From: Cupriavidus necator
GTDB lineage: Bacteria > Pseudomonadota > Gammaproteobacteria > Burkholderiales > Burkholderiaceae
Direction of reading: 5' to 3'
NCBI RefSeq assembly: GCF_016127575.1
Contig: NZ_CP066018.1
Coordinates: 2,640,001 to 2,672,000 of the forward strand
DNA length: 32,000 nucleotides
Part shown: positions 12,741 through 21,822 of the stretch, in pieces
How the letters are laid out: the number at the start of each line of letters is the position of its first letter
Position numbering within the stretch: the stretch's first letter is position 1
The notes under the pieces: generated by a model
Told to the model about the DNA's origin: nothing
The model's database searches: none
What the model saw: only the letters and a program-made list of their open reading frames with translations
Made by a program: the position numbers and the translations under genes

Positions 12741-13024
12741 GCGAGCACACAGGATGCCCGCACGGGGCGGACGAAAACGCTCCCGCTTGACCTCCTGCAG
12801 CGGCATTGGGCCGCTGTTCGCGGCGAGCACTGCGGTCATTGACTCCACGCGCCAGACTTCCTGCGACTCTCCGGGTGGTCCGGATGGGCGTCCGCTTCAT
12901 GCATCATGGGCGGAATCATGGGAAGCCTGCCTGGAACAGAATGACCGAACTGCTGACCGCGTGACCCAGGTGGTCCGGGCCCGTCCGCATCCAAAGCCCG
13001 CCAGCGATGGCGGGCTTTTCATTT
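12741..13024 (+). ncRNA. Candidate orphan small RNA / untranslated transcript (~285 nt), bounded by a promoter-like and a terminator-like element
   Basis: Promoter at 12707-12734 and rho-independent terminator at 12993-13024. Only tiny or low-quality ORFs lie inside. Internal stem cagcgg-cattggg-ccgctg at 12798-12816. Imperfect direct repeat GGTGGTCCGG..CGTCCGC at 12874-12895 and 12969-12988. No Rfam family recognised by eye. Confidence 0.3.
12993..13024. terminator. Rho-independent terminator; strong on the + strand, probably also ends the minus-strand peptide operon
   Basis: aaagcccgcc-agcgat-ggcgggcttt followed by tcattt. On the minus strand the same stem is preceded by aaatgaaaa and followed by only TTTGG. 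It lies 25 nt past the pepA4 stop. Confidence 0.6.
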
Positions 13025-13042
13025 GGCGGTTGTGGTTGCGGT

Positions 13043-13285
13043 TCAGTCTTCTGCATCCTTGCCAGCGGCCTTGCGCGGCAGCCGCCCTAGCGGCTGCTCC
13101 TGCGGCATCACATGGCGGTTGCCCGGCAATCCGCCCGGGTAGTCGACGATGCGCGCGGTGTCCTGGCGCCGCAGGCCATGCCATGCCTGGCCGCCGGCGG
13201 TACGCCCGCCGCCCAGGATGGCGGTCATGGCCTGCCGGTCGAGATCCATGCTGTCGGGCAAATCCTTGATGACGATCACTGCCAT
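13043..13285 (-). CDS. GG-leader peptide precursor, divergent basic cargo (pepA4, my label)
   Basis: MAVIVIKDLPDSMDLDRQAMTAILGG|GRTAGGQAWHGLRRQDTARIVDYPGGLPGNRHVMPQEQPLGRLPRKAAGKDAED. The leader is in the same 26-aa register as its five paralogs (D8 L9, L15 D16, M20, I23, G25 G26). The same ccGGAGAc..ATG initiation region is used. Confidence 0.55.
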   Translation of the reverse strand: MAVIVIKDLPDSMDLDRQAMTAILGGGRTAGGQAWHGLRRQDTARIVDYPGGLPGNRHVMPQEQPLGRLPRKAAGKDAED

Positions 13286-13389
13286 GGCTGTCTCCGGTCA
13301 AGCGGCGCCACGGCCATGCGGCCGCGGGACCGCTTCAGTATAGGCGAGGCGGTCCGCGGTATTGCCCGCGGGGCCGCCGCGCGGTGCGC

Positions 13390-13662
13390 TCAGACTGCGG
13401 CGAAATTGCCGGCCCATTGCGACGGGTTGACGTTGACGCGCACCGGGCCGAAGTCGGGGCCGACGATGCTGTTGTTGAGCGTGTTGACGTTGATGCTCTG
13501 CAGCTGCGCGATGTTCTGGTTGACGTTGACGGTGACGTTGGCCAGCGGGCCGACGCTGCCGACACCGCGGCTGAGCCACGAGTTGCCGCCGCGTACGGCG
13601 CACAGCGAGGCACGGTCGAGTTCTTTGCTCAGGGCGAGATCGCGGACGAGGATCGATGACAT
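13390..13662 (-). CDS. GG-leader peptide precursor, divergent Asn/Val-repeat cargo (pepA3)
   Basis: MSSILVRDLALSKELDRASLCAVRGG|NSWLSRGVGSVGPLANVTVNVNQNIAQLQSINVNTLNNSIVGPDFGPVRVNVNPSQWAGNFAAV. Good RBS (aaaggagcaccaccATG). Leader in the family register. Confidence 0.7.
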   Translation of the reverse strand: MSSILVRDLALSKELDRASLCAVRGGNSWLSRGVGSVGPLANVTVNVNQNIAQLQSINVNTLNNSIVGPDFGPVRVNVNPSQWAGNFAAV

Positions 13663-13696
13663 GGTGGTGCTCCTTTGAGTCGGGTGCCGGGGGCGG

Positions 13697-13728
13697 CTGG
13701 CGCGGAGATTGCAGCATCTGCGCGCCAG
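13697..13728 (-). other. Strong intercistronic hairpin between pepA2 and pepA3 (13-bp stem, one mismatch, 6-nt loop; no U tract)
   Basis: Plus strand: ctggcgcggagat-tgcagc-atctgcgcgccag. Confidence 0.4.
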
Positions 13729-13744
13729 CAGTGGCCAGGGCGTA

Positions 13745-14014
13745 TCAGCCGAAGATGTTGTTGGTGGCGTTCTGGTTGGTGTGCACGTCGGACTTGACGT
13801 GGTCCAGGAAGGCCGAGCCGTTGCCGTTCAGGTTGGTCACGGTCTGCATCTGCGCGATGCTTTGCGTGGCGTTGATGCTGTTGTCCAGCGACAGCCTGAT
13901 CGGCGTGTAGACGGCGGCGAAGGGCAGGTAGGCCAGGCCGCCGCGCACGGCGTGCATGCGCTTGCTGTCGAGGGTTTCGGCGGCGGGCAGGTCCTTGATG
14001 GTCAGCGTGGTCAT
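13745..14014 (-). CDS. GG-leader peptide precursor (pepA2)
   Basis: MTTLTIKDLPAAETLDSKRMHAVRGG|LAYLPFAAVYTPIRLSLDNSINATQSIAQMQTVTNLNGNGSAFLDHVKSDVHTNQNATNNIFG. 89 aa; hydrophobic residues at -4, -7, -12 relative to the GG. Confidence 0.8.
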   Translation of the reverse strand: MTTLTIKDLPAAETLDSKRMHAVRGGLAYLPFAAVYTPIRLSLDNSINATQSIAQMQTVTNLNGNGSAFLDHVKSDVHTNQNATNNIFG

Positions 14015-14068
14015 GATGGTCTCCGGTATCGGTCAGTGCGTGGGTGTGGGTGGCTGGGGCGCGTGGGC

Positions 14069-14338
14069 TCAGCCGTAGATGTTGTTGCTGGCGTTCTGGT
14101 TGGTATCCACATGCGAACGGACATGGTCCAGGAAGGCCGAGCCGTTGCCGTTCATGTTGGTGACGGTCTGCATCTGGGCGATTTCCTGCACGGCCTTGAT
14201 GCTGCTGTCGAACGACAGCTTCACCGGGCTGTAGACCGCGGCGAACGGCATGTAGGCCAGGCCGCCGCGTACGGCGTGCATGCCCTTGCGGTCCAGGGTT
14301 TCGGTGGAGGACAGGTCCTTGATGGTCAGCGTGGTCAT
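14069..14338 (-). CDS. GG-leader peptide precursor (pepA1)
   Basis: MTTLTIKDLSSTETLDRKGMHAVRGG|LAYMPFAAVYSPVKLSFDSSIKAVQEIAQMQTVTNMNGNGSAFLDHVRSHVDTNQNASNNIYG. First gene behind the sigma54 promoter. SD-like GGAG lies 7 nt before the ATG. Confidence 0.8.
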   Translation of the reverse strand: MTTLTIKDLSSTETLDRKGMHAVRGGLAYMPFAAVYSPVKLSFDSSIKAVQEIAQMQTVTNMNGNGSAFLDHVRSHVDTNQNASNNIYG

Positions 14339-14417
14339 GATGGTCTCCGGTAGAGGAAGGTACTGCCTTGGGTCTGGTTTCGAGCATCGGGTTGGTGTCG
14401 CGCTCGGGAGGTACTAA

Positions 14418-14433
14418 CGCAGGGACTGTGCCA
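14418..14433 (-). promoter_or_regulatory. Sigma54 (-24/-12) promoter of the pepA1-A4 operon
   Basis: The minus strand reads caTTGGCACAGTCCCTGCGTTag, i.e. TGGCAC-N5-CTGC with correct GG-N10-GC spacing. It is ~95 nt upstream of the pepA1 ATG and near-identical to the element at 19493-19508. Confidence 0.75.
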
Positions 14434-14464
14434 ATGCCGTTGCCGGTCCCGACCAGTCACGCGC

Positions 14465-14483
14465 AACTGCCTGAAAACACGGG
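14465..14483 (-). promoter_or_regulatory. Conserved upstream element (candidate enhancer/UAS or IHF-type site) of the sigma54 promoter, copy A
   Basis: Minus strand CCCGTGTTTTCAGGCAGTT, 31 nt upstream of TGGCAC and preceded by the A/T-rich gaaaataaat. It matches 17/19 with copy B at the same spacing. Confidence 0.35.
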
Positions 14484-14665
14484 CGATTTATTTTCGATGT
14501 CGGCTTGCGGGCACTGGCTGCGGGCGCTGCCGCATGCTACGGGTGACGGGCCGCGGCCAACAGGCGGCGTGCCGGTGTTGGCGCGGCCGCGACAGTGGCG
14601 CGCCAAAGGCGATGCGATTGGCAGGGGGCGCCCGCGCGCGGCGTTGCACGCCGGCTTCGCATGGT

Positions 14666-14694
14666 TTGCGCATGCCTTGGGTGCGCACTAGTAT
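14666..14694 (+). promoter_or_regulatory. Candidate sigma70 promoter of the kinase gene (TTGCGC-17 nt-TAGTAT)
   Basis: tTTGCGCatgccttgggtgcgcacTAGTATcc, ~50 nt upstream of ATG 14747. Confidence 0.3.
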
Positions 14695-14746
14695 CCATCT
14701 CGAAGGCAGGCATATCCGCATCGTGGGATGCGCCGTGCCAGCAACC

Positions 14747-16798
14747 ATGTCGGGGCATCCGGTGGCCAGTCTCAAAGAACTGATCCGCAAGTTCCAGAAC
14801 GGCGGTCTCTCCGACGACGAGTTTGTTGCGTCGTTCGAAACGGCGCTGGCGCAGGATCCCACCACGCCCAGCCAGGCCGCGCGCGTGGTCATCGAGGAAA
14901 ACACGCGCTTCCCGTTCCCGCCCGCGGTCTATGCCGAAGTCATGCGGCGCATCGAGCGCCGCGGCGCCACGCAGTACGACGGCGCCACCGAGGCCACGCG
15001 CCTGGCCGGCACGCAGACGGGCTCGCTGTATGCGACCTCGCCCGAGCCGGGCACGCTGCCGCAGGCGGCGCATACCAAGGGCGTGGGCGATACGCTGAAC
15101 GGCCGCTTCGTGCTGGAAGAATGCCTGGGCGTGGGCGGCATGGGCACGGTCTACAAGGCGCTCGACCTGCGCAAGCTGGAAGCCTCGGACCGCAAGCCCT
15201 ATATCGCCATCAAGGTGCTGAACCTGCAGTTCAGCGGGCACCCCAAGTCGCTGATGGCGCTGCAGCGCGAGGCGCGCAAGGCGCAGACGCTGGCGCACCG
15301 GAATATCGTCACCGTCTATGACTTCGACCGCGACGGGCCGGTGGTCTTCCTGACCATGGAATACCTGTCAGGCTCTTCGCTCAACCATGTGCTCAAGGCC
15401 CCGGGCTTCACCGGCATGCCGATGGCGCGCGCCATGTCGATCATCAACGGCATGGGCAATGCGCTGGCATACGCGCACGAGCGCGGCTTCGTGCACTGCG
15501 ACTTCAAGCCCGCCAACGTCTTCCTGACCGCCAACGGCGAGGTCAAGGTGATCGACTTCGGCATCGCGCGCGGCTTCCTGCCGCCGGCCGACGAGTCCGA
15601 CCGGACCGTGTTCGATCCCGGCTCGCTGGGTGGCATGACGCCAGCCTACGCCAGCCCGGAGATGTTCGACCATTGCGAGCCCGACCCGCGCGACGACATC
15701 TTTGCGCTGGCCTGCGTGACCTATGAACTGCTGACCGGCAAGCATCCCTACCAGCGGCTCTCGGCCAACCAGGCGCGCGATGCCGGGCTCAAGCCGGCGC
15801 AGCCGCCGCAGTTGAGCCGCACGCAGTGGAAGACCCTGCGCGAGGCGCTGTCGCTCGACCGCGAGACACGCACGCCCACCGTCGCGCGCTTCCTGCATGG
15901 CATGAGCGCGGTGCCGGTGGTGTCCACGCGGCGCCCCTCGCCGCTGATGGCAGGCGGCGCGCTGGCCGTGCTGGCGGGCGTGTCGGCGATCGGCTACTAC
16001 GCCTGGCATTCGCAGCGCCAGGCCGAAGCACCGGCTGGCGATGCGCGCGTCGAGGCCCCGGCTACACCGGTGCCCGCAGCGCCGGTCATCCCGCCCGCAC
16101 CGGCTGCCCGCCCGGCGGTGCTGTCGATGGCCGACGTCACGAAGATGCTGGCCGCGGTGCCGTGCTCGCTGCTCACCGCCACCCAGCAGGCGCAGACGTT
16201 GCGTGTGCGTGGCTTCCTGGCCGAGAGCGTCGGCGCCGTGCGGCTGCGCGAGCAGCTCAGCGCGTTGCCGGGCGTCAAGGAGCTCAAGGGCGTGTCGATC
16301 GACACCCAGCCGCTGGCCGCCGACAAGTGCGACGTGGCCACCCTGATCGCGCCGTACTGGTCGGGCCACCGCGAAGGGGGCACGGCTTCGTCGCTGCGGC
16401 TGCGCGGCCAGGGCACGCAGCTGACCGAAGGGTCACCGCTGGTGCTGGATCTGCGCACGCCGGCGCGCGACTCCTATGTCTATGTCGATTACTTCGCGGC
16501 CGACGGCAAGGTGGCGCACATGGTGCCGAGCGCGCGCGTGCCCGCCCACCAGGCGCCGCCCAGCCATGGCGCCACGGTTGGCGACGGTGGCGACTGGATC
16601 ATCTCCGGGCCGTTCGGCACCGAGCTGGTGGTGTTGCTGACCACGCCCGCGCCGCTGTTCGATGGCCGGCGCGCCGAGGTCGAGCTGCACAAGGACTACC
16701 TGAAGGCACTGGAAAAGCCGCTGGCGCAGATGGCGCGCACCTATGGCCGGGACCGCATCAGCGCGGACCTGGTGCAGATCTCCACGCGCGCGCGCTGA
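14747..16798 (+). CDS. Transmembrane Hanks-type Ser/Thr protein kinase (non-RD) with a periplasmic DUF4384-like C-terminal domain
   Basis: Track ORF 14534..16798 trimmed to ATG 14747 (MSGHPVASLKELIRKF...); GTG 14723 is an alternative. GVGGMGTVYKA, IAIKVL, HCDFKPANVF (HRD->HCD), VIDFGIA, TPAYASPE. TM segment LMAGGALAVLAGVSAIGYYAW. C-terminal SYVYVDYFAADGKVAHMVPS...ELVVLLT resembles DUF4384. Confidence 0.9.
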   Translation: MSGHPVASLKELIRKFQNGGLSDDEFVASFETALAQDPTTPSQAARVVIEENTRFPFPPAVYAEVMRRIERRGATQYDGATEATRLAGTQTGSLYATSPEPGTLPQAAHTKGVGDTLNGRFVLEECLGVGGMGTVYKALDLRKLEASDRKPYIAIKVLNLQFSGHPKSLMALQREARKAQTLAHRNIVTVYDFDRDGPVVFLTMEYLSGSSLNHVLKAPGFTGMPMARAMSIINGMGNALAYAHERGFVHCDFKPANVFLTANGEVKVIDFGIARGFLPPADESDRTVFDPGSLGGMTPAYASPEMFDHCEPDPRDDIFALACVTYELLTGKHPYQRLSANQARDAGLKPAQPPQLSRTQWKTLREALSLDRETRTPTVARFLHGMSAVPVVSTRRPSPLMAGGALAVLAGVSAIGYYAWHSQRQAEAPAGDARVEAPATPVPAAPVIPPAPAARPAVLSMADVTKMLAAVPCSLLTATQQAQTLRVRGFLAESVGAVRLREQLSALPGVKELKGVSIDTQPLAADKCDVATLIAPYWSGHREGGTASSLRLRGQGTQLTEGSPLVLDLRTPARDSYVYVDYFAADGKVAHMVPSARVPAHQAPPSHGATVGDGGDWIISGPFGTELVVLLTTPAPLFDGRRAEVELHKDYLKALEKPLAQMARTYGRDRISADLVQISTRAR

Positions 16799-16843
16799 TT
16801 GCCGCCAGCCGGCCGGCTTGCCGCTTGGCAATTGCGCCAGCCG

Positions 16844-18067
16844 CTACTTCATGTCGCGCGCCACGCGAAAGCCGTTCTGCGACTGCCGCACGCTGGGGCT
16901 GTACTTGAAGCGCGTGGACGACACCATGTAGTTCGCCCCCTCGCGCCAGGAGCCGCCGCGGATCACGCGTGCGCCGCAGGCGTTCTCGTTCCATACGCGC
17001 CCGTCGGCGGGCGCGCCCTTGTATGAGCTGTGCCAGCAATCGGCCACCCATTCCCACACGCTGCCGTTGACGTCGTGCAGGCCGTACGGGTTGGCCGCGA
17101 ATGTCCCGACCGCGGCCGGCGCATCCTGGCTCCATGGGTCGCCGCAGTCCTTGCAGTTGGCATTGCCCTTGCGCATCTGGTCGCCCCACCAGTAGGCACT
17201 GGCGGTGCCGCCGCGCGCTGCGTATTCCCATTCGGCCTCGGTGGGCAGCCGGTAGGACTTGCCGGTGGTCTTGCTGAGCCAGGCCACGTACTGCTGCGCG
17301 TCGTCCCAGCTGACGTCGCGCACCGGCGCGTTCTTCGCGCTGTCGGCGACGGTGGGGACGCGCTGGCAGCCGCCGGCGTCGGCGCAGGCATTCCATTGCT
17401 CGACCGTGACCTCATAGCGGCCGATGGCAAACGGCTGGCCGATGGTGACGTGGTGCGGGGGCTTCTCGGCGGGATCGCTGGCACTGCTGCCCATGGTGAA
17501 GCTGCCCGCCGGCAGGGGGACCAGCACCGGGCAGGCCGGGCAATCGCGGATCTCGCCGGTGCGCAATGTGGCGCTGACCGCGCCGCCCGCCGCCGCGCCC
17601 GGGCGCAGCGATGCCGTTGCCGGTGGCGCAGCAGGTGGCGCAGCAGGTGACGCAGCGGGCGGCGATGCCGGACGCGCTGCCGCGGCCGGTGCCGGCGGCC
17701 GCGTGACCTGGCCCCCGGCAGAGGTGCCGGAGCGGGGCGGCGGTGCGGGCGCCTGGGCCTTGGGTGCGGAGGCGGACGCCGCCAGCCGCTCCAGGCGCGC
17801 CCTGGCCAGCACCGCGAAGCGTCCGTTGGGGTACTGCTTCAGGTAGGCCTCGTAGTCGCCGGCATAATTGCTGTTCTTGATCGATTCCCAGAAGCTCAGC
17901 TCGTACTGCTCCTCGGTGTTCTTGGGCATGATGCCGGCGAGCAGCAGCGGTTCCGTGGCCGCGGGGCCGGCGGCAGCGGCGGCCGCCTGCGCGGGCAGCG
18001 GCGCGGCGGCGAGCATGGCGGCCATGGCGGCCGTGCGTACGACTGGTAGATTGCGCCACATCTTCAC
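16844..18067 (-). CDS. Secreted FGE-sulfatase-fold (SUMF1/EgtB/PvdO family) protein with an N-terminal helical module and a Pro/Ala linker
   Basis: Signal peptide [58 protein letters not shown] module. FGE domain: [76 protein letters not shown]. Confidence 0.85.
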
Positions 18068-18355
18068 ACCTCGCTGGAGCCGCGGCGATCCCGCTGCATG
18101 CCGGTAGCTGCCGGCACATGCGTCGGGGGCGCATTGTGGTGTTGCCGAGACGTCGACCGGCTTGCTTCAAGATAGCACAGCGCGTGTGTCTCCGGCGGGG
18201 CATTGGCACGCAACCGCGACGCGCCGGGTTCGCTTTTTCCGTGCTTGCGACCTAACCTGAATGACGAATCGCCGAGCGCTGACCAACAAGCAACAAGAAT
18301 GGGCTTTCGGGACAACGTGATCGGGTTTCGGACTGTTATCCGGGAGGCGCCGCGT

Positions 18356-18781
18356 ATGTCCAGACGATTCCTGTTCCGCCTGCTGGCGGTTGCCGCCCTC
18401 GCCGCGGCCCCGTCGCTGTCGCTGTCGACGGCAGCCCCGCCCAATGCCGAGGCCTACATCATCTGGCCGCACGATGGCACGGTCATCAGCGGCGGCAAGT
18501 TCTGGGTGCGCATGGGCCTGCGCAATATGGGCGTGTGCCCCAAGGGCGTCGAGTCGCCGCGCTGCGGGCACCACCACCTGCTGGTCGACACCGAGCTGCC
18601 GCCGCTGGACAAGGAAATCCCTTCGGACAAGAACCACCTGCACTTCGGCGCGGGCGAGACCGACGCGCGCATTGAGTTGCCGCCCGGCAAGCACACGCTG
18701 CAATTGCTGATGGGCGATGCCAAGCACGTGCCGTTCGAGCCGCCGATCTATTCGAAGAAGATCACGATCACGGTGAAATAG
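18356..18781 (+). CDS. Secreted DUF4399-family protein (copy 1)
   Basis: Track ORF trimmed to ATG 18356 (RBS gggagg). Signal peptide MSRRFLFRLLAVAALAAAPSLSLSTA. GHHHLLVD, HLHFGAGETD, LPPGKHTLQLLMGD motifs. Confidence 0.75.
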   Translation: MSRRFLFRLLAVAALAAAPSLSLSTAAPPNAEAYIIWPHDGTVISGGKFWVRMGLRNMGVCPKGVESPRCGHHHLLVDTELPPLDKEIPSDKNHLHFGAGETDARIELPPGKHTLQLLMGDAKHVPFEPPIYSKKITITVK

Positions 18782-18840
18782 CGGTGCAGCGCGCGCCGCG
18801 GAAGCCGAACCTAGGCCGATCAGCAAACAGGGAGAGCACC

Positions 18841-19269
18841 ATGTCCAGACTACTTGCCGCGGCTGTCTTTGCCGCCAGCCTGCTGCTGTCAGCGGTGGTG
18901 CAGGGTGGTTCGACGCCGGCGCCGCCCAACGCCTACCTGTATATCGGCTGGCCCAACGACGGGCAGACGATGCCCGCGGGCAAGCCATTCAAGGTCTGGT
19001 TCGGGTTGCGCAATATGGGGGTGGCGCCAAAGGACGTGAAGTATCCCAATACTGGGCACCATCACCTGCTTGTCGATGTGGACCTGCCGCCGATGGACAA
19101 GGAGATCCCCAATGACCGCAATCACCTGCATTTCGGGGCGGGGGAGACCGAGACCATGATCGAGCTGCCGCCCGGCAAGCATACGCTGCAGCTGCTGATG
19201 GGGGATGACAAGCACATTCCCACCAACCCGCCGGTTTATTCGAAGAGGATCACGATCTACGTGAAGTGA
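18841..19269 (+). CDS. Secreted DUF4399-family protein (copy 2, tandem paralog)
   Basis: Track ORF trimmed to ATG 18841 (RBS gggagag). Signal peptide MSRLLAAAVFAASLLLSAVVQG. Same GHHHLLVD / HLHFGAGETE / LPPGKHTLQLLMGD motifs; roughly two thirds identical to copy 1 by eye. Confidence 0.75.
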   Translation: MSRLLAAAVFAASLLLSAVVQGGSTPAPPNAYLYIGWPNDGQTMPAGKPFKVWFGLRNMGVAPKDVKYPNTGHHHLLVDVDLPPMDKEIPNDRNHLHFGAGETETMIELPPGKHTLQLLMGDDKHIPTNPPVYSKRITIYVK

Positions 19270-19289
19270 TCCGGACCTTGCGGTGACGG

Positions 19290-19314
19290 CGGCGCGCAAT
19301 GCGCCGTTTTTTTT
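19290..19314 (+). terminator. Rho-independent terminator after the DUF4399 pair
   Basis: cggcgc-gcaat-gcgccg followed by T8. Confidence 0.7.
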
Positions 19315-19443
19315 GTGCGCTGGCGCCGCAAGTGTCGGTCGCCATCCAACATCGACGGGCAAGCTGTTGGCTGCGCGCCGCCAGTGCGCGCTGACGCAGG
19401 CTCGCCGCGCCTCCGCCGCCGGCGCTGGCGGCAAGAAAAATTC

Positions 19444-19462
19444 CCCGTGTTTACAGGCACTT
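19444..19462 (+). promoter_or_regulatory. Conserved upstream element of the sigma54 promoter, copy B
   Basis: CCCGTGTTTACAGGCACTT, 30 nt upstream of TGGCAC and preceded by agaaaaatt. It pairs with copy A (14465-14483, minus strand). Confidence 0.35.
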
Positions 19463-19492
19463 CCGTGATCCGCGCGGCCATGGCGCCGGGGC

Positions 19493-19508
19493 TGGCACGC
19501 TCCCTGCG
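19493..19508 (+). promoter_or_regulatory. Sigma54 (-24/-12) promoter of pepB1-pepB2
   Basis: gcTGGCACGCTCCCTGCGAT: TGGCAC-N5-CTGC with GG-N10-GC spacing. The ~69-nt leader to ATG 19588 is highly similar to the pepA1 leader (cctcc.gagcgcgacaccaacccgatgctcga...ccttcctctacc.ggagaccatcATG). Confidence 0.75.
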
Positions 19509-19587
19509 ATTGTCCCTCCTGAGCGCGACACCAACCCGATGCTCGACCAACCACCAAGGTAACACCTTCCTCTACCCGGAGACCATC

Positions 19588-19857
19588 ATGACCACGCTGA
19601 CCATCACCGACCTGACCACCGTCGACACCCTGGACCGCAAGGGCATGCTCGCCGTTCGCGGCGGCCGCACCCTGCTCCCGTTCATGCCGGTGTACCACCC
19701 GCTCAACCTGTCGTTCGACCACAGCATCACCGCCGTGCAGGAAATCGCGCAGATGCAGACCGTCACCAATATGAATGGCAACGGCTCGGCCTTCCTGGAC
19801 CACGTGAAGTCCGACGTGCACACCAACCAGAACGCCACCAACAACATCTACGGCTGA
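19588..19857 (+). CDS. GG-leader peptide precursor (pepB1)
   Basis: Track ORF 19315..19857 trimmed to ATG 19588. MTTLTITDLTTVDTLDRKGMLAVRGG|RTLLPFMPVYHPLNLSFDHSITAVQEIAQMQTVTNMNGNGSAFLDHVKSDVHTNQNATNNIYG. Confidence 0.8.
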   Translation: MTTLTITDLTTVDTLDRKGMLAVRGGRTLLPFMPVYHPLNLSFDHSITAVQEIAQMQTVTNMNGNGSAFLDHVKSDVHTNQNATNNIYG

Positions 19858-19904
19858 GCCCCTGCGCGCCAGCTAGCTGCTTCTTACCGATACCGGAGAC
19901 CATC

Positions 19905-20174
19905 ATGACCACGCTGACCATCAAAGACCTGTCCGCCACCGAAACCCTCGACAGCAAGCGCATGCATGCCGTGCGCGGCGGCCTGTCGTACCTGCCCTTT
20001 GCCGCCGTGTATGCGCCGATCAAGCTCGCGTTCGACAGCAGCATCACCGCCAAGCAGGAAATCGCGCAGTTGCAGTCCGTGACCAACCTGAACGGCAATG
20101 GCTCGGCCTTCCTCGACCATGTCCGTTCGCATGTGGATACCAACCAGAACGCCAGCAACAATATCTATCGTTGA
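19905..20174 (+). CDS. GG-leader peptide precursor (pepB2)
   Basis: MTTLTIKDLSATETLDSKRMHAVRGG|LSYLPFAAVYAPIKLAFDSSITAKQEIAQLQSVTNLNGNGSAFLDHVRSHVDTNQNASNNIYR. Confidence 0.8.
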   Translation: MTTLTIKDLSATETLDSKRMHAVRGGLSYLPFAAVYAPIKLAFDSSITAKQEIAQLQSVTNLNGNGSAFLDHVRSHVDTNQNASNNIYR

Positions 20175-20194
20175 GAAGCTTGTTGAGATGGCGC

Positions 20195-20229
20195 AGCGCC
20201 GCGGGGGCGTCCCCGCGGCGCTTTTGTTG
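20195..20229 (+). terminator. Rho-independent terminator/attenuator between pepB2 and the NodT gene
   Basis: agcgccgcgggg-gcgt-ccccgcggcgct followed by tttgttg. Confidence 0.6.
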
Positions 20230-20358
20230 AGCCCTTGCATATCGGGGTTGGAGCGCGCGCCAGCGCGCACCACAATACAGACAGACTTCGCGGCCCCGGC
20301 ATGCCTTGGGGTATCTCCAGCGCATCCCGCCCGCCGCCGTCGCACGCAGGAACCCATC

Positions 20359-21822
20359 GTGCCTGAATCCATCACTGCCTCGCCCGCGGTTGCGTCAACC
20401 GCCGCGCCGCACCGTACCGCCTGGCTGGCCGCGCTGGCCGCCTGCGCGGCATTGCTGGCAGGCTGCGCCGATTTCCGGCCGCCGGTGTACCAGCGCCCGG
20501 AAACCCCGGCCAAGGCCGAATGGACGCGCCAGGAATCGATCACGGTATCGCCGGCCGAAACGGTGCAGCCCAACTGGTGGCTGGGCTTCAAGGATCCTTA
20601 CCTGAACAGGCTGATCGACCAGGCGCTTTACGGCAACTACGACATCAAGGTGCTGGCGGCGCGCATCCGCGTGGCCAACGCGCAGATCGGCGAGGCCCGT
20701 GCCGGCGGGCTGCCGGTGATCGATATCGGCGCCGGTGCGAGCTTCGAGAAGAGCACCGGGCAGAAGTCCACCTGGACCTATAACGCCGGCGCCCAGCTGA
20801 ACTGGGACATCGACATCTGGGGCAAGGTCGAGAAGGGCGTGCAGGCGCAGACCGCCGAGTTCCGCGCCACCGAGGCCGACTGGCGCGCCGGCTACCTGAC
20901 GCTGGTGTCCAATGTATCGACCACTTACTTCCAGATCCTGCAGTTCGACGAGCAGATCGAGCAGCAGGCGCGCACCGTGGCCAAGAACGGGCAGATCCTG
21001 TCGACCTACCAGGCCATGTACCAGAACGGCCTGGTGCCAAAGATCCGGGTGATGCAGCAGCAGGCGGAAATCAACCGCCTGAACAAGGACCTGCTGGAGC
21101 TGCGCCGTTCGCGCGATGTGGCTGAAAACGCGCTGGCCACGCTGGTCGGTGTGCCCGCGGGCAATCTCAAGGTGCCGGCGGGGCGCCTGCAGGACCGCGT
21201 GCAGCCGCCCGCGGTGCCGGCCGGGCTGCCGTCGCAACTGCTGGCGCGCCGCCCGGACGTGGTGGCGGCGGAATACCGCGTGCTGGCCGCGTACAACATC
21301 GTTGGCCAGGCCCGTTTGGCGCAGTTGCCCACCATCAGCCTGACCGCGCGCGGCGGCACCGCCAGCTTTGCGCTGAGCGACCTGCTCAAGTCATTCACCT
21401 TCGGCTTCATGCCCAGCATCAACCTGCCGATGCTCGACCCGAGCGTGCGCGCGCGCGTGAAGACCACCGAGGCGCAGGTGGGCGTGGCGGAAAACGAATA
21501 TGGCCGCACCGTGATGACCGCGTTCGAAGAGGTGGAGAGCGCACTGGTCAATGTCGACGCGCACAAGAAGCAGCGCATCGAGCTGCAGCAGCAGGTTGAG
21601 CAGCTGCGCGTCGTGTCCGCGCAGATCGAGGCGCAACTGAAGGAGGGCGTGGTCTCGCAGCTGGAAGTGTTCGAGACCGAGCGCTCGCTGCTGGCCGCGC
21701 AACTGCAGTTGTTGGCGGTCCACCAACAGATCCTGGCCGACACCGTCACCCTGTACAAGGCGCTTGGCGGTGGCTGGCCCGATACCGACGTGCGCAACGC
21801 GGCGTCGAATCCGCCGCAGTAA
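20359..21822 (+). CDS. NodT-family (OprM/TolC-like) outer-membrane efflux lipoprotein
   Basis: Track ORF trimmed to GTG 20359 (aggaa RBS 5 nt upstream). Lipobox LLAGC|ADF. WWLGFKDPYLNRLIDQALYGNYDIKVLAARI is the typical NodT N-terminus. Two OEP repeats; ends LYKALGGGW. Confidence 0.85.
   Translation: MPESITASPAVASTAAPHRTAWLAALAACAALLAGCADFRPPVYQRPETPAKAEWTRQESITVSPAETVQPNWWLGFKDPYLNRLIDQALYGNYDIKVLAARIRVANAQIGEARAGGLPVIDIGAGASFEKSTGQKSTWTYNAGAQLNWDIDIWGKVEKGVQAQTAEFRATEADWRAGYLTLVSNVSTTYFQILQFDEQIEQQARTVAKNGQILSTYQAMYQNGLVPKIRVMQQQAEINRLNKDLLELRRSRDVAENALATLVGVPAGNLKVPAGRLQDRVQPPAVPAGLPSQLLARRPDVVAAEYRVLAAYNIVGQARLAQLPTISLTARGGTASFALSDLLKSFTFGFMPSINLPMLDPSVRARVKTTEAQVGVAENEYGRTVMTAFEEVESALVNVDAHKKQRIELQQQVEQLRVVSAQIEAQLKEGVVSQLEVFETERSLLAAQLQLLAVHQQILADTVTLYKALGGGWPDTDVRNAASNPPQ

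Follow-up and report, generated by a model that had tools for sequence, protein, structure and literature searches.

A probable short gene-conversion patch between the inverted arms of a double-glycine peptide locus in Cupriavidus necator

The stretch of Cupriavidus necator DNA analysed here, a window of 32,000 nucleotides (nt) (NZ_CP066018.1, 2,640,001-2,672,000; all coordinates below are positions in this window unless a contig is named), comes from a 7.4-Mb genome in three contigs, designated G000, and contains an inverted repeat whose two arms each carry a pair of genes for small peptides. Arm A (13745-14494, minus strand) consists of an upstream element, a sigma-54-type promoter (TGGCAC-N5-CTGC, near 14419-14433), a leader and the genes A1 and A2. 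Arm B (19434-20174, plus strand) has the same layout, with its promoter near 19493-19507 and the genes B1 and B2. When the arms were aligned with each other by blastn, they were 81.9% identical over 741 nt (13753-14489 versus 19438-20166), in agreement with the first-pass annotation of this DNA, which had described inverted repeats of about 740 bp. Each arm amounts to the gene pair plus about 150 nt of upstream DNA; the homology takes in both TGGCAC-N5-CTGC motifs and extends precisely as far as the stop codons of A2 and B2. The subject of this analysis is the tail of A1, which contains a short patch of B2-type sequence.

All four genes are 270 nt long (89 codons) and can be aligned without gaps. 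A1 (14069-14338, minus strand) encodes an 89-amino-acid (aa) peptide with a 26-aa double-glycine leader, and combines an A1-type head with a patch of what is here called R-type sequence in its tail. A2 (13745-14014, minus strand) ends in a tail of the other type, K (KSDVHTNQNATNNIFG), as does B1 (19588-19857, plus strand), which has a distinct leader variant. B2 (19905-20174, plus strand) is the last gene of arm B, adjoining a set of exporter genes, and has an R-type tail (RSHVDTNQNASNNIYR). Positions within genes are counted from the start of each gene, and the tail is defined as the last 57 nt (nt 214-270). In the two tail types, Asp and His are exchanged two residues apart (KSDVH versus RSHVD), next to the invariant DH of the FLDHV sequence. 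A search of the genome yielded no further close copy of any of the four genes.

The four genes group differently in their heads and their tails. Over nt 1-213, nine quartet-informative sites support the grouping A1B1|A2B2, with two sites each for A1B2|A2B1 and A1A2|B1B2. Over nt 214-270, ten sites support A1B2|A2B1 and none supports either of the other patterns (Fisher exact P = 6.7e-5 for the contrast between head and tail). The tails of A1 and B2 are 93% identical and those of A2 and B1 96.5%, while the remaining pairs reach 74-81%. The crossed pattern extends to synonymous positions, such as CAT/CAC at nt 216 and TCG/TCC at nt 225. This is the arrangement that the first-pass annotation had read from the translations, with first genes pairing with first genes upstream and tails crossed, and the peptide strings it quoted are all present. 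It had placed the switch at an invariant NGNGSAFLDHV block, and the arm alignment and breakpoint tests indeed locate a breakpoint at the stretch coding for GSAFLDH, rather than uniform divergence. This near-invariant block, GGCTCGGCCTTCCT-N-GACCA (20100-20119, plus strand, in B2), corresponds to nt 196-209 and 211-215, which are the same in all four genes; nt 210 varies. Between A1 and B2, there is no difference over 47 nt (nt 211-257), a run that includes 11 concordant variable sites (permutation P = 0.013). The concordant run between A2 and B1 comprises 10 sites (P = 0.0014), and a maximum chi-squared (max-chi2) test places a breakpoint for that pair between nt 189 and 195 (P = 5e-5).

Which of these tails is out of place can be seen from the relatives. 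Among 78 genomes of the genus that were searched, the peptides were found in 57, and the whole locus was taken from 40 other Cupriavidus species, making 41 with G000; the close clade comprises 21 species, that is, G000 and 20 relatives. For A1, A2, B1 and B2, positional orthologs exist across Cupriavidus. In the 21-species clade, the R-type tail invariably sits on the last gene of arm B, where its haplotype (GAC CAT GTC CGT TCG CAT GTG GAT ACC AAC CAG AAC GCC AGC AAC AAT ATC TAT CGT TGA) is almost invariant. The K-type tail, KS[DN]V[HR]TNQNATNNI[YF]G, is written in GC-ending codons and is found in A1, A2 and B1 throughout the clade, with A1 of G000 as the sole exception. The A2 tail of G000 is identical at 57 of 57 nt to the A2 orthologs of six species, and its B2 tail is likewise 57/57 identical to the B2 orthologs of many. 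The B1 tail matches its own A2 at 55 of 57 nt, and it matches the B1 ortholog of one relative (G038) equally well. As far as sequence can tell, the likeness of A2 and B1 is thus a matter of their shared K type and not of a second exchange.

The foreign patch in A1 is well delimited. At its widest, it spans 14082-14128 on the minus strand (gene nt 211-257), and at its narrowest 14088-14123 (nt 216-251), as defined by identity to B2 and by diagnostic sites; the corresponding stretch of B2 is 20115-20161 (plus strand, nt 211-257), which has the R haplotype with its rare T-ending codons (CAT CGT TCG CAT GAT). The patch is identical to the genome's own B2 at 47 of 47 nt, compared with 38 of 47 for the best A1 ortholog, while the A1 head (nt 1-213) is 93-95% identical to the A1 orthologs of other species. 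At sites that consistently separate 18 A1 orthologs from 10 B2 orthologs, the G000 gene has A1-like states at nt 31 and 109, B2-like states at nt 216, 220, 221, 228, 232 and 234, and A1-like states again at nt 264, 265 and 267. The synonymous positions within the tract all agree with B2 (T at nt 216, 222, 228 and 234, G at nt 225). The flanks are K-type on both sides, with G at nt 210, C at nt 258 and the 3' end ..AAC ATC TAC GGC TGA. G000 is the only one of the 21 close species to have R-type bases in A1. An identical A1 protein occurs in 13 assemblies, of which 12 are chromosomes of about 4.05 Mb, and the patch is therefore not an assembly error.

A1 of G000 is a natural chimera with an A1 head, the RSHVD..AS residues and an ..IYG end, a new combination of head and tail. 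Its tract shows the marks of gene conversion: the partners are paralogs in one genome, the tract is bounded, synonymous sites are included and the donor, B2, is unchanged. Since the sites run A1, B2, A1 along the gene, B2 is unchanged, and A2 and B1 are of plain K type, the whole pattern can be explained by one non-reciprocal event. The chimera is most likely the product of a single non-reciprocal conversion of 36-47 nt from B2 to A1, in which A2 and B1 were not involved. The direction, from B2 to A1, appears the simpler one on parsimony, and the underlying pathway would presumably be RecA-dependent break repair, by analogy with other systems.

Several points weigh against this interpretation. 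A single-breakpoint max-chi2 test of A1 against B2 is not significant (P = 0.39). This is explained by the patch having two ends, and the evidence for the pair was taken from the run test and the diagnostic sites instead. The R tail is almost invariant across species, so that identity to its own B2 does not by itself prove that the donor was the B2 of the same genome. Direction and timing both rest on parsimony, and the nearest genomes available for dating the conversion belong to other species. The RecA and break-repair pathway is assumed from general knowledge (PMC5485169). Finally, A1 tails of the RSHVD type occur in the outgroup species G063 and G004 and in a metagenome genome (L056), so R residues at A1 are an old state somewhere in the genus.

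The last point opens an alternative in which the R tail of A1 is original, the K type having replaced it elsewhere and eroded both of its ends in G000. Besides the RSHVD tails of G063 and G004, this retention can call on the L056 gene, which encodes RSHVDTNQNASNNISR, and on the A1 genes of G010, G028 and G038, whose R-like 3' ends (..ISR or ..IYR) indicate that the K type has overwritten A1 in some lineages. However, the A1 R tails of G063, G004 and L056 are written in GC-ending codons and end in CGC TAA (CGC TCG CAC GTC GAC ... TCC), and the G000 patch has exactly the T-ending haplotype of B2. L056 thus shows that the RSHVD..AS residues can be encoded by other codons, so that identity of residues does not require identity of bases, and the T-ending codons of the G000 patch point to direct copying from the B2 haplotype. 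Moreover, in a tree of the NodT and kinase proteins of the locus, G000 is nested among species with a K-type A1. A gain of the R patch is then one step, while ancestral retention demands at least three independent replacements. Retention is accordingly considered improbable.

The older alleles deserve description in their own right. The A1 gene of L056 (L056:8001-8270), from a compost-metagenome Cupriavidus, has GC-ending codons and a TAA stop, like the A1 genes of G063 and G004. The A1 genes of G010 and G028 keep only the ..ISR/TAA end of the older R allele, which was apparently overwritten piecemeal by K-type sequence in the clade of these two species.

A reciprocal tail swap, in which two linked exchanges or a double crossover would have made both A1/B2 and A2/B1 recombinant, is still less probable. 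The first-pass annotation had proposed recombination or gene conversion among paralogs with a mosaic, tail-swapped relationship between the arms; gene conversion is supported, but the reciprocal swap finds no support when the genes are compared with their orthologs in the 20 close species. The four genes taken alone do look symmetrical, given the ten A1B2|A2B1 sites in the tail, and the most significant breakpoint belongs to the A2-B1 pair. However, neither the A2 tail (57/57 to orthologs) nor the B1 tail (55/57 both to the G038 B1 and to A2) is out of place, and the A2-B1 breakpoint merely marks where the diverged head of B1 meets the common K tail. A1 alone is at variance with its orthologs.

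The arms enclose a central block (14534-19269) that encodes, according to Pfam matches, a Ser/Thr kinase on the plus strand, an FGE-fold protein on the minus strand and two DUF4399 proteins on the plus strand. Beyond arm A lie two more divergent genes with double-glycine leaders, A3 and A4, and a DEAD-box helicase gene. Beyond arm B are genes for a NodT-type outer-membrane protein, a double-FHA protein, HlyD, a 1036-aa ABC exporter and a sigma-54 activator. A3 (13390-13662, minus strand; 90 aa, rich in N/V repeats) and A4 (13043-13285, minus strand; 80 aa) are outside the repeat; their position is kept in nearly all 41 species, and they are without a counterpart at arm B.

The geometry of the arms, which share exact runs of 25-47 nt, would permit the central block to flip, either in a programmed fashion or by frequent RecA-mediated events, with the mosaic genes as a by-product. 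The possibility that the arms mediate inversion, raised in the first-pass annotation, receives no support from fixed differences. The gene order DEAD-A4-A3-(A2)-A1 / kinase-FGE-DUF4399a-DUF4399b / B1-(B2, B3)-NodT-FHA has the same orientation in 41 of 41 species, and the reference orientation is also found in L055, L056 and two H16-type assemblies. Apart from one ambiguous metagenome contig, no second orientation was seen, whether in the 41 species or in the two H16-type assemblies. No recombinase is present among the genes between or beside the arms (the kinase, FGE, two DUF4399, NodT outer-membrane, FHA and HlyD proteins and the DEAD helicase), so that of the features of an invertible segment, the locus has the flanking inverted repeats but neither an adjoining recombinase nor two orientations. 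The arms here are only 82% identical, and an inversion with the arms in register would not give a patch of B2 in A1. A system of programmed or frequent inversion at these arms is most improbable. The exact runs are long enough for homologous pairing but a poor substrate for long tracts or crossovers, which fits with both the short patches and the lack of fixed inversions.

The ambiguous contig, L058, is a 2.6-kb compost-metagenome sequence (GCA_026648475.1) that joins DUF4399b and the DNA upstream of arm B to A1-A2-A3, an inversion-type joint. The joint (L058 positions 1480-1538) falls inside a 59-nt stretch of promoter and leader that, by comparison with L056, is identical in both arms of that organism. 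A second contig from the same sample (L062) begins at this 59-nt repeat, and a short contig from Logan (L064) joins B1 to A3. A look-up with the kinase returned no contig from the sample of L058. Because the exact repeat around the joint exceeds common assembly k-mers in length, because L062 starts there and because L064 joins B1 to A3, misassembly is at least as likely as a real inversion, and the contig is probably uninformative.

Convergent evolution, by which selection would have produced RSHVD..S in A1 without transfer of DNA, can be dismissed as equally improbable: the same residues in the L056 A1 are encoded by different codons (Ser as TCC and not AGC), which makes the pattern seem favoured or old, but in G000 the synonymous positions match B2 too, the tract being identical at 47 of 47 nt, and the T-ending codons involved are non-preferred (the R tail has a GC content at third codon positions, GC3, of 0.61, compared with 0.90 for genes nearby). 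A template-switch or quasi-palindrome origin of the difference between K and R was also considered and rejected, since flipping either the loop or the arms of the K-tail sequence CACGTC-N6-GACGTG does not, by eye, yield R.

For gene conversion from B2 to A1, the following course of events can be proposed. The arms would be old inverted duplicates of a sigma-54-driven operon for peptides with double-glycine leaders, and they would evolve in concert through homologous, RecA-type, non-reciprocal recombination. In G000, 36-47 nt of the R-type tail of B2 would have been copied into A1, most likely when a break or gap in A1 was repaired. On its left, the tract would end within the invariant GSAFLDH-coding block, and on its right inside the conserved ACCAACCAGAACGCC...AAC stretch, ahead of the last four codons. 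Recombination between the arms would generally be resolved as conversion; crossovers, which would invert the 4.9-kb block, appear not to have been fixed anywhere in the genus.

Similar events can be traced in other species. In G030, the A1 core matches its own B1 at 131 of 135 nt, compared with 122 of 135 for the best ortholog, while the leader is still of A1 type (77/78). The B2 head of G057 is closer to its own A2 (207/213) than to the best ortholog (191/213), and it has retained its R tail. In L055, a C. nantongensis record, the one gene of arm B combines an A1-like head with an R tail, and the head matches its own A1 at 199 of 213 nt and B1 orthologs at 180-183 of 213. In seven species (L037, L050-L054 and L035), arm B holds just one gene, with a B1 head joined to an R tail, which is the product expected of unequal recombination between B1 and B2. 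Exchange within an arm is seen as well: TSNVR is unique to A1 and A2 of G025, NQNGT is unique to A1 and A2 of G065, and in G038 both A1 and A2 have 87 codons with a common two-codon deletion (PF--VY), a derived indel shared by paralogs of one genome. Several of these conversion junctions coincide with the GSAFLDH-coding block, which forms the left edge of the A1 patch and recurs as a junction in the B2 of G057, the one-gene B arms and L055.

Inverted arms are present in all species, with an arm-to-arm identity of 78-96%. They are nearly homogenised in G004 (96.2%), G068 (95.3%) and G063 (93.6%), over 743-919 nt. In G004 and G063, A1 equals B1 and A2 equals B2 at the protein level, and G068 comes close to this. 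Judged from these comparisons, conversion between the arms is a recurrent process across the genus. The R tail of the exporter-proximal arm-B gene is never overwritten in any species of the clade. The number of genes per arm also varies; G063 (L076) has three arm-B genes, and more distant species have one arm-A gene.

The tails are conserved at the nucleotide level beyond what is seen in their surroundings. Relative to G000, synonymous-codon differences per conserved residue amount to 0.03 in tails of both types, 0.08-0.18 in the heads, 0.18 in NodT and 0.30 in DUF4399b. In the R tail (20118-20174; relatives L035-L054), 7 of 18 codons are T-ending and non-preferred, and these were kept in 125 of 134 comparisons (93%) over 20 species, compared with 55-59% for such codons in NodT and DUF4399b. 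This suggests a constraint on the nucleotide sequence of the tail. The 3' untranslated region, the terminator and the element upstream of NodT are also nearly invariant. The terminator, an intrinsic one (20195-20222, plus strand), lies 3' of B2, outside the repeat, at the end of the arm-B transcription unit, and its stem is kept by compensatory changes in relatives. Between it and the NodT gene, a segment at 20241-20283 (ATCGGGGTTGGAGCGCGCGCC.GCGCGCACCACAATACAGACAGAC) is almost invariant in 21 species, resembles TTGGAG-N17-CACAAT and contains an internal GC palindrome, which makes it a candidate promoter or operator of the exporter operon.

An RNA hairpin was considered as the cause of the conserved rare codons. 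In the predicted fold of G000, GAACGG pairs with the R-specific CCGUUC and AUGG with CCAU (z = -2.5 with the terminator included). However, CGT is replaced by CGC in five species, and G046, G010 and G065 break pairs, so the hairpin was rejected. No match was obtained when 12900-20500 was compared with Rfam at E <= 1.

A broader reading would take the 16-residue C-terminal tail as a functional module, with two alleles maintained by selection, the GSAFLDH block as a fixed junction and the bases of the R tail as carriers of an RNA- or DNA-level signal. The head/tail recombinants at the GSAFLDH junction (A1 of G000, B2 of G057, L055, the one-gene B arms and SK-4 protein P0033) can be cited in its favour. 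As a joint proposition, this is rather unlikely; if true, the family would diversify the specificity of its secreted peptides by cassette-like exchange between expressed paralogs.

Among the features of class II microcin- or bacteriocin-like peptides exported by a peptidase-containing ABC transporter, the peptides have the N-terminal leader that ends in GG ahead of a core. This 26-aa leader, MTTLTIKDL..LD.K.M.AVRGG, is conserved in 50 homologs, and G25 and G26 are invariant. The 1036-aa ABC protein scores 487 bits against TIGR01193 (peptide cleavage/export), below the cutoff of 524 bits, and 564 bits against TIGR03796, below the cutoff of 853 bits; HlyD and an outer-membrane efflux protein are encoded nearby. 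The peptides have no family match in Pfam or NCBIfam, and a literature search found no paper on these C. necator peptides. An AlphaFold2 model of A1, made with the 50 homologs, has a mean predicted local distance difference test score of 49 and no secondary structure, and is not confident. The tail stretch of all four genes is rich in His and Asp (e.g., 13760-13810 and 20118-20170), and the nearby DUF4399 proteins have a GHHHLLVD motif. The His/Asp-rich tail might have a putative role in binding a metal or a partner.

The locus is a case of ectopic gene conversion and concerted evolution of a well-known kind, and no new mechanism is called for. Its nearest studied analogue in geometry is the tufA/tufB pair of Salmonella enterica, for which Abdulkarim and Hughes described gene conversion between inverted paralogs in 1996 (cited in PMC5485169). 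In the tuf pair, a broken copy is repaired using the other, which leaves a continuous tract, and where copies have diverged, mismatch repair makes the tracts shorter (PMC5485169). The Cupriavidus arms are likewise inverted intrachromosomal paralogs with continuous non-reciprocal tracts, homology that ends at the repeat boundary and a geometry capable of inversion. They differ in being about 740 nt long and 78-96% identical, compared with about 1.2 kb and near identity for the tuf genes. The Cupriavidus tracts are short (36-213 nt), and the genes involved encode small secreted peptides, sit two to an arm and use out-of-register partners, such as A1 with B2. Natural inversions mediated by tuf are reported for many Enterobacteriaceae in PMC6735719, whereas none is fixed in the 41 Cupriavidus species.

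The locus also resembles other cases of prokaryotic concerted evolution (PMC6053082; for rRNA operons, PMC8022953), in which, at depth, similarity is higher among the paralogs of one genome than among the orthologs of distant species. In G004, G063 and G068, the arms are 94-96% identical, compared with an identity of about 60-80% between the flanking proteins and those of G000. In contrast to the general case, homogenisation in the clade of G000 is incomplete and patchy, and in no species has it overcome the R tail of the last arm-B gene. The pilE/pilS system, as cited in PMC5485169, similarly involves the movement of a short C-terminal module between family members at a conserved junction. 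In Cupriavidus, however, there are no silent cassettes; both partners appear to be expressed genes behind their own promoters, and no evidence of a high rate or of programmed variation was found at the locus. Mosaic bacteriocin and microcin genes are further families in which modules are shuffled.

The annotation history of the locus is corrected by the finding that A1 of strain H16 is chimeric, with a tail from B2. It provides a clean, well-bounded case of very short conversion tracts between inverted repeats that have diverged to 82% identity, and a useful contrast to tuf, with concerted evolution of the arms in 41 species and zero fixed inversions. For the peptide family, it suggests that the last 16 residues of these sigma-54-controlled secreted peptides may be a separable unit, and the natural head/tail recombinants are available for testing the role of the tail.

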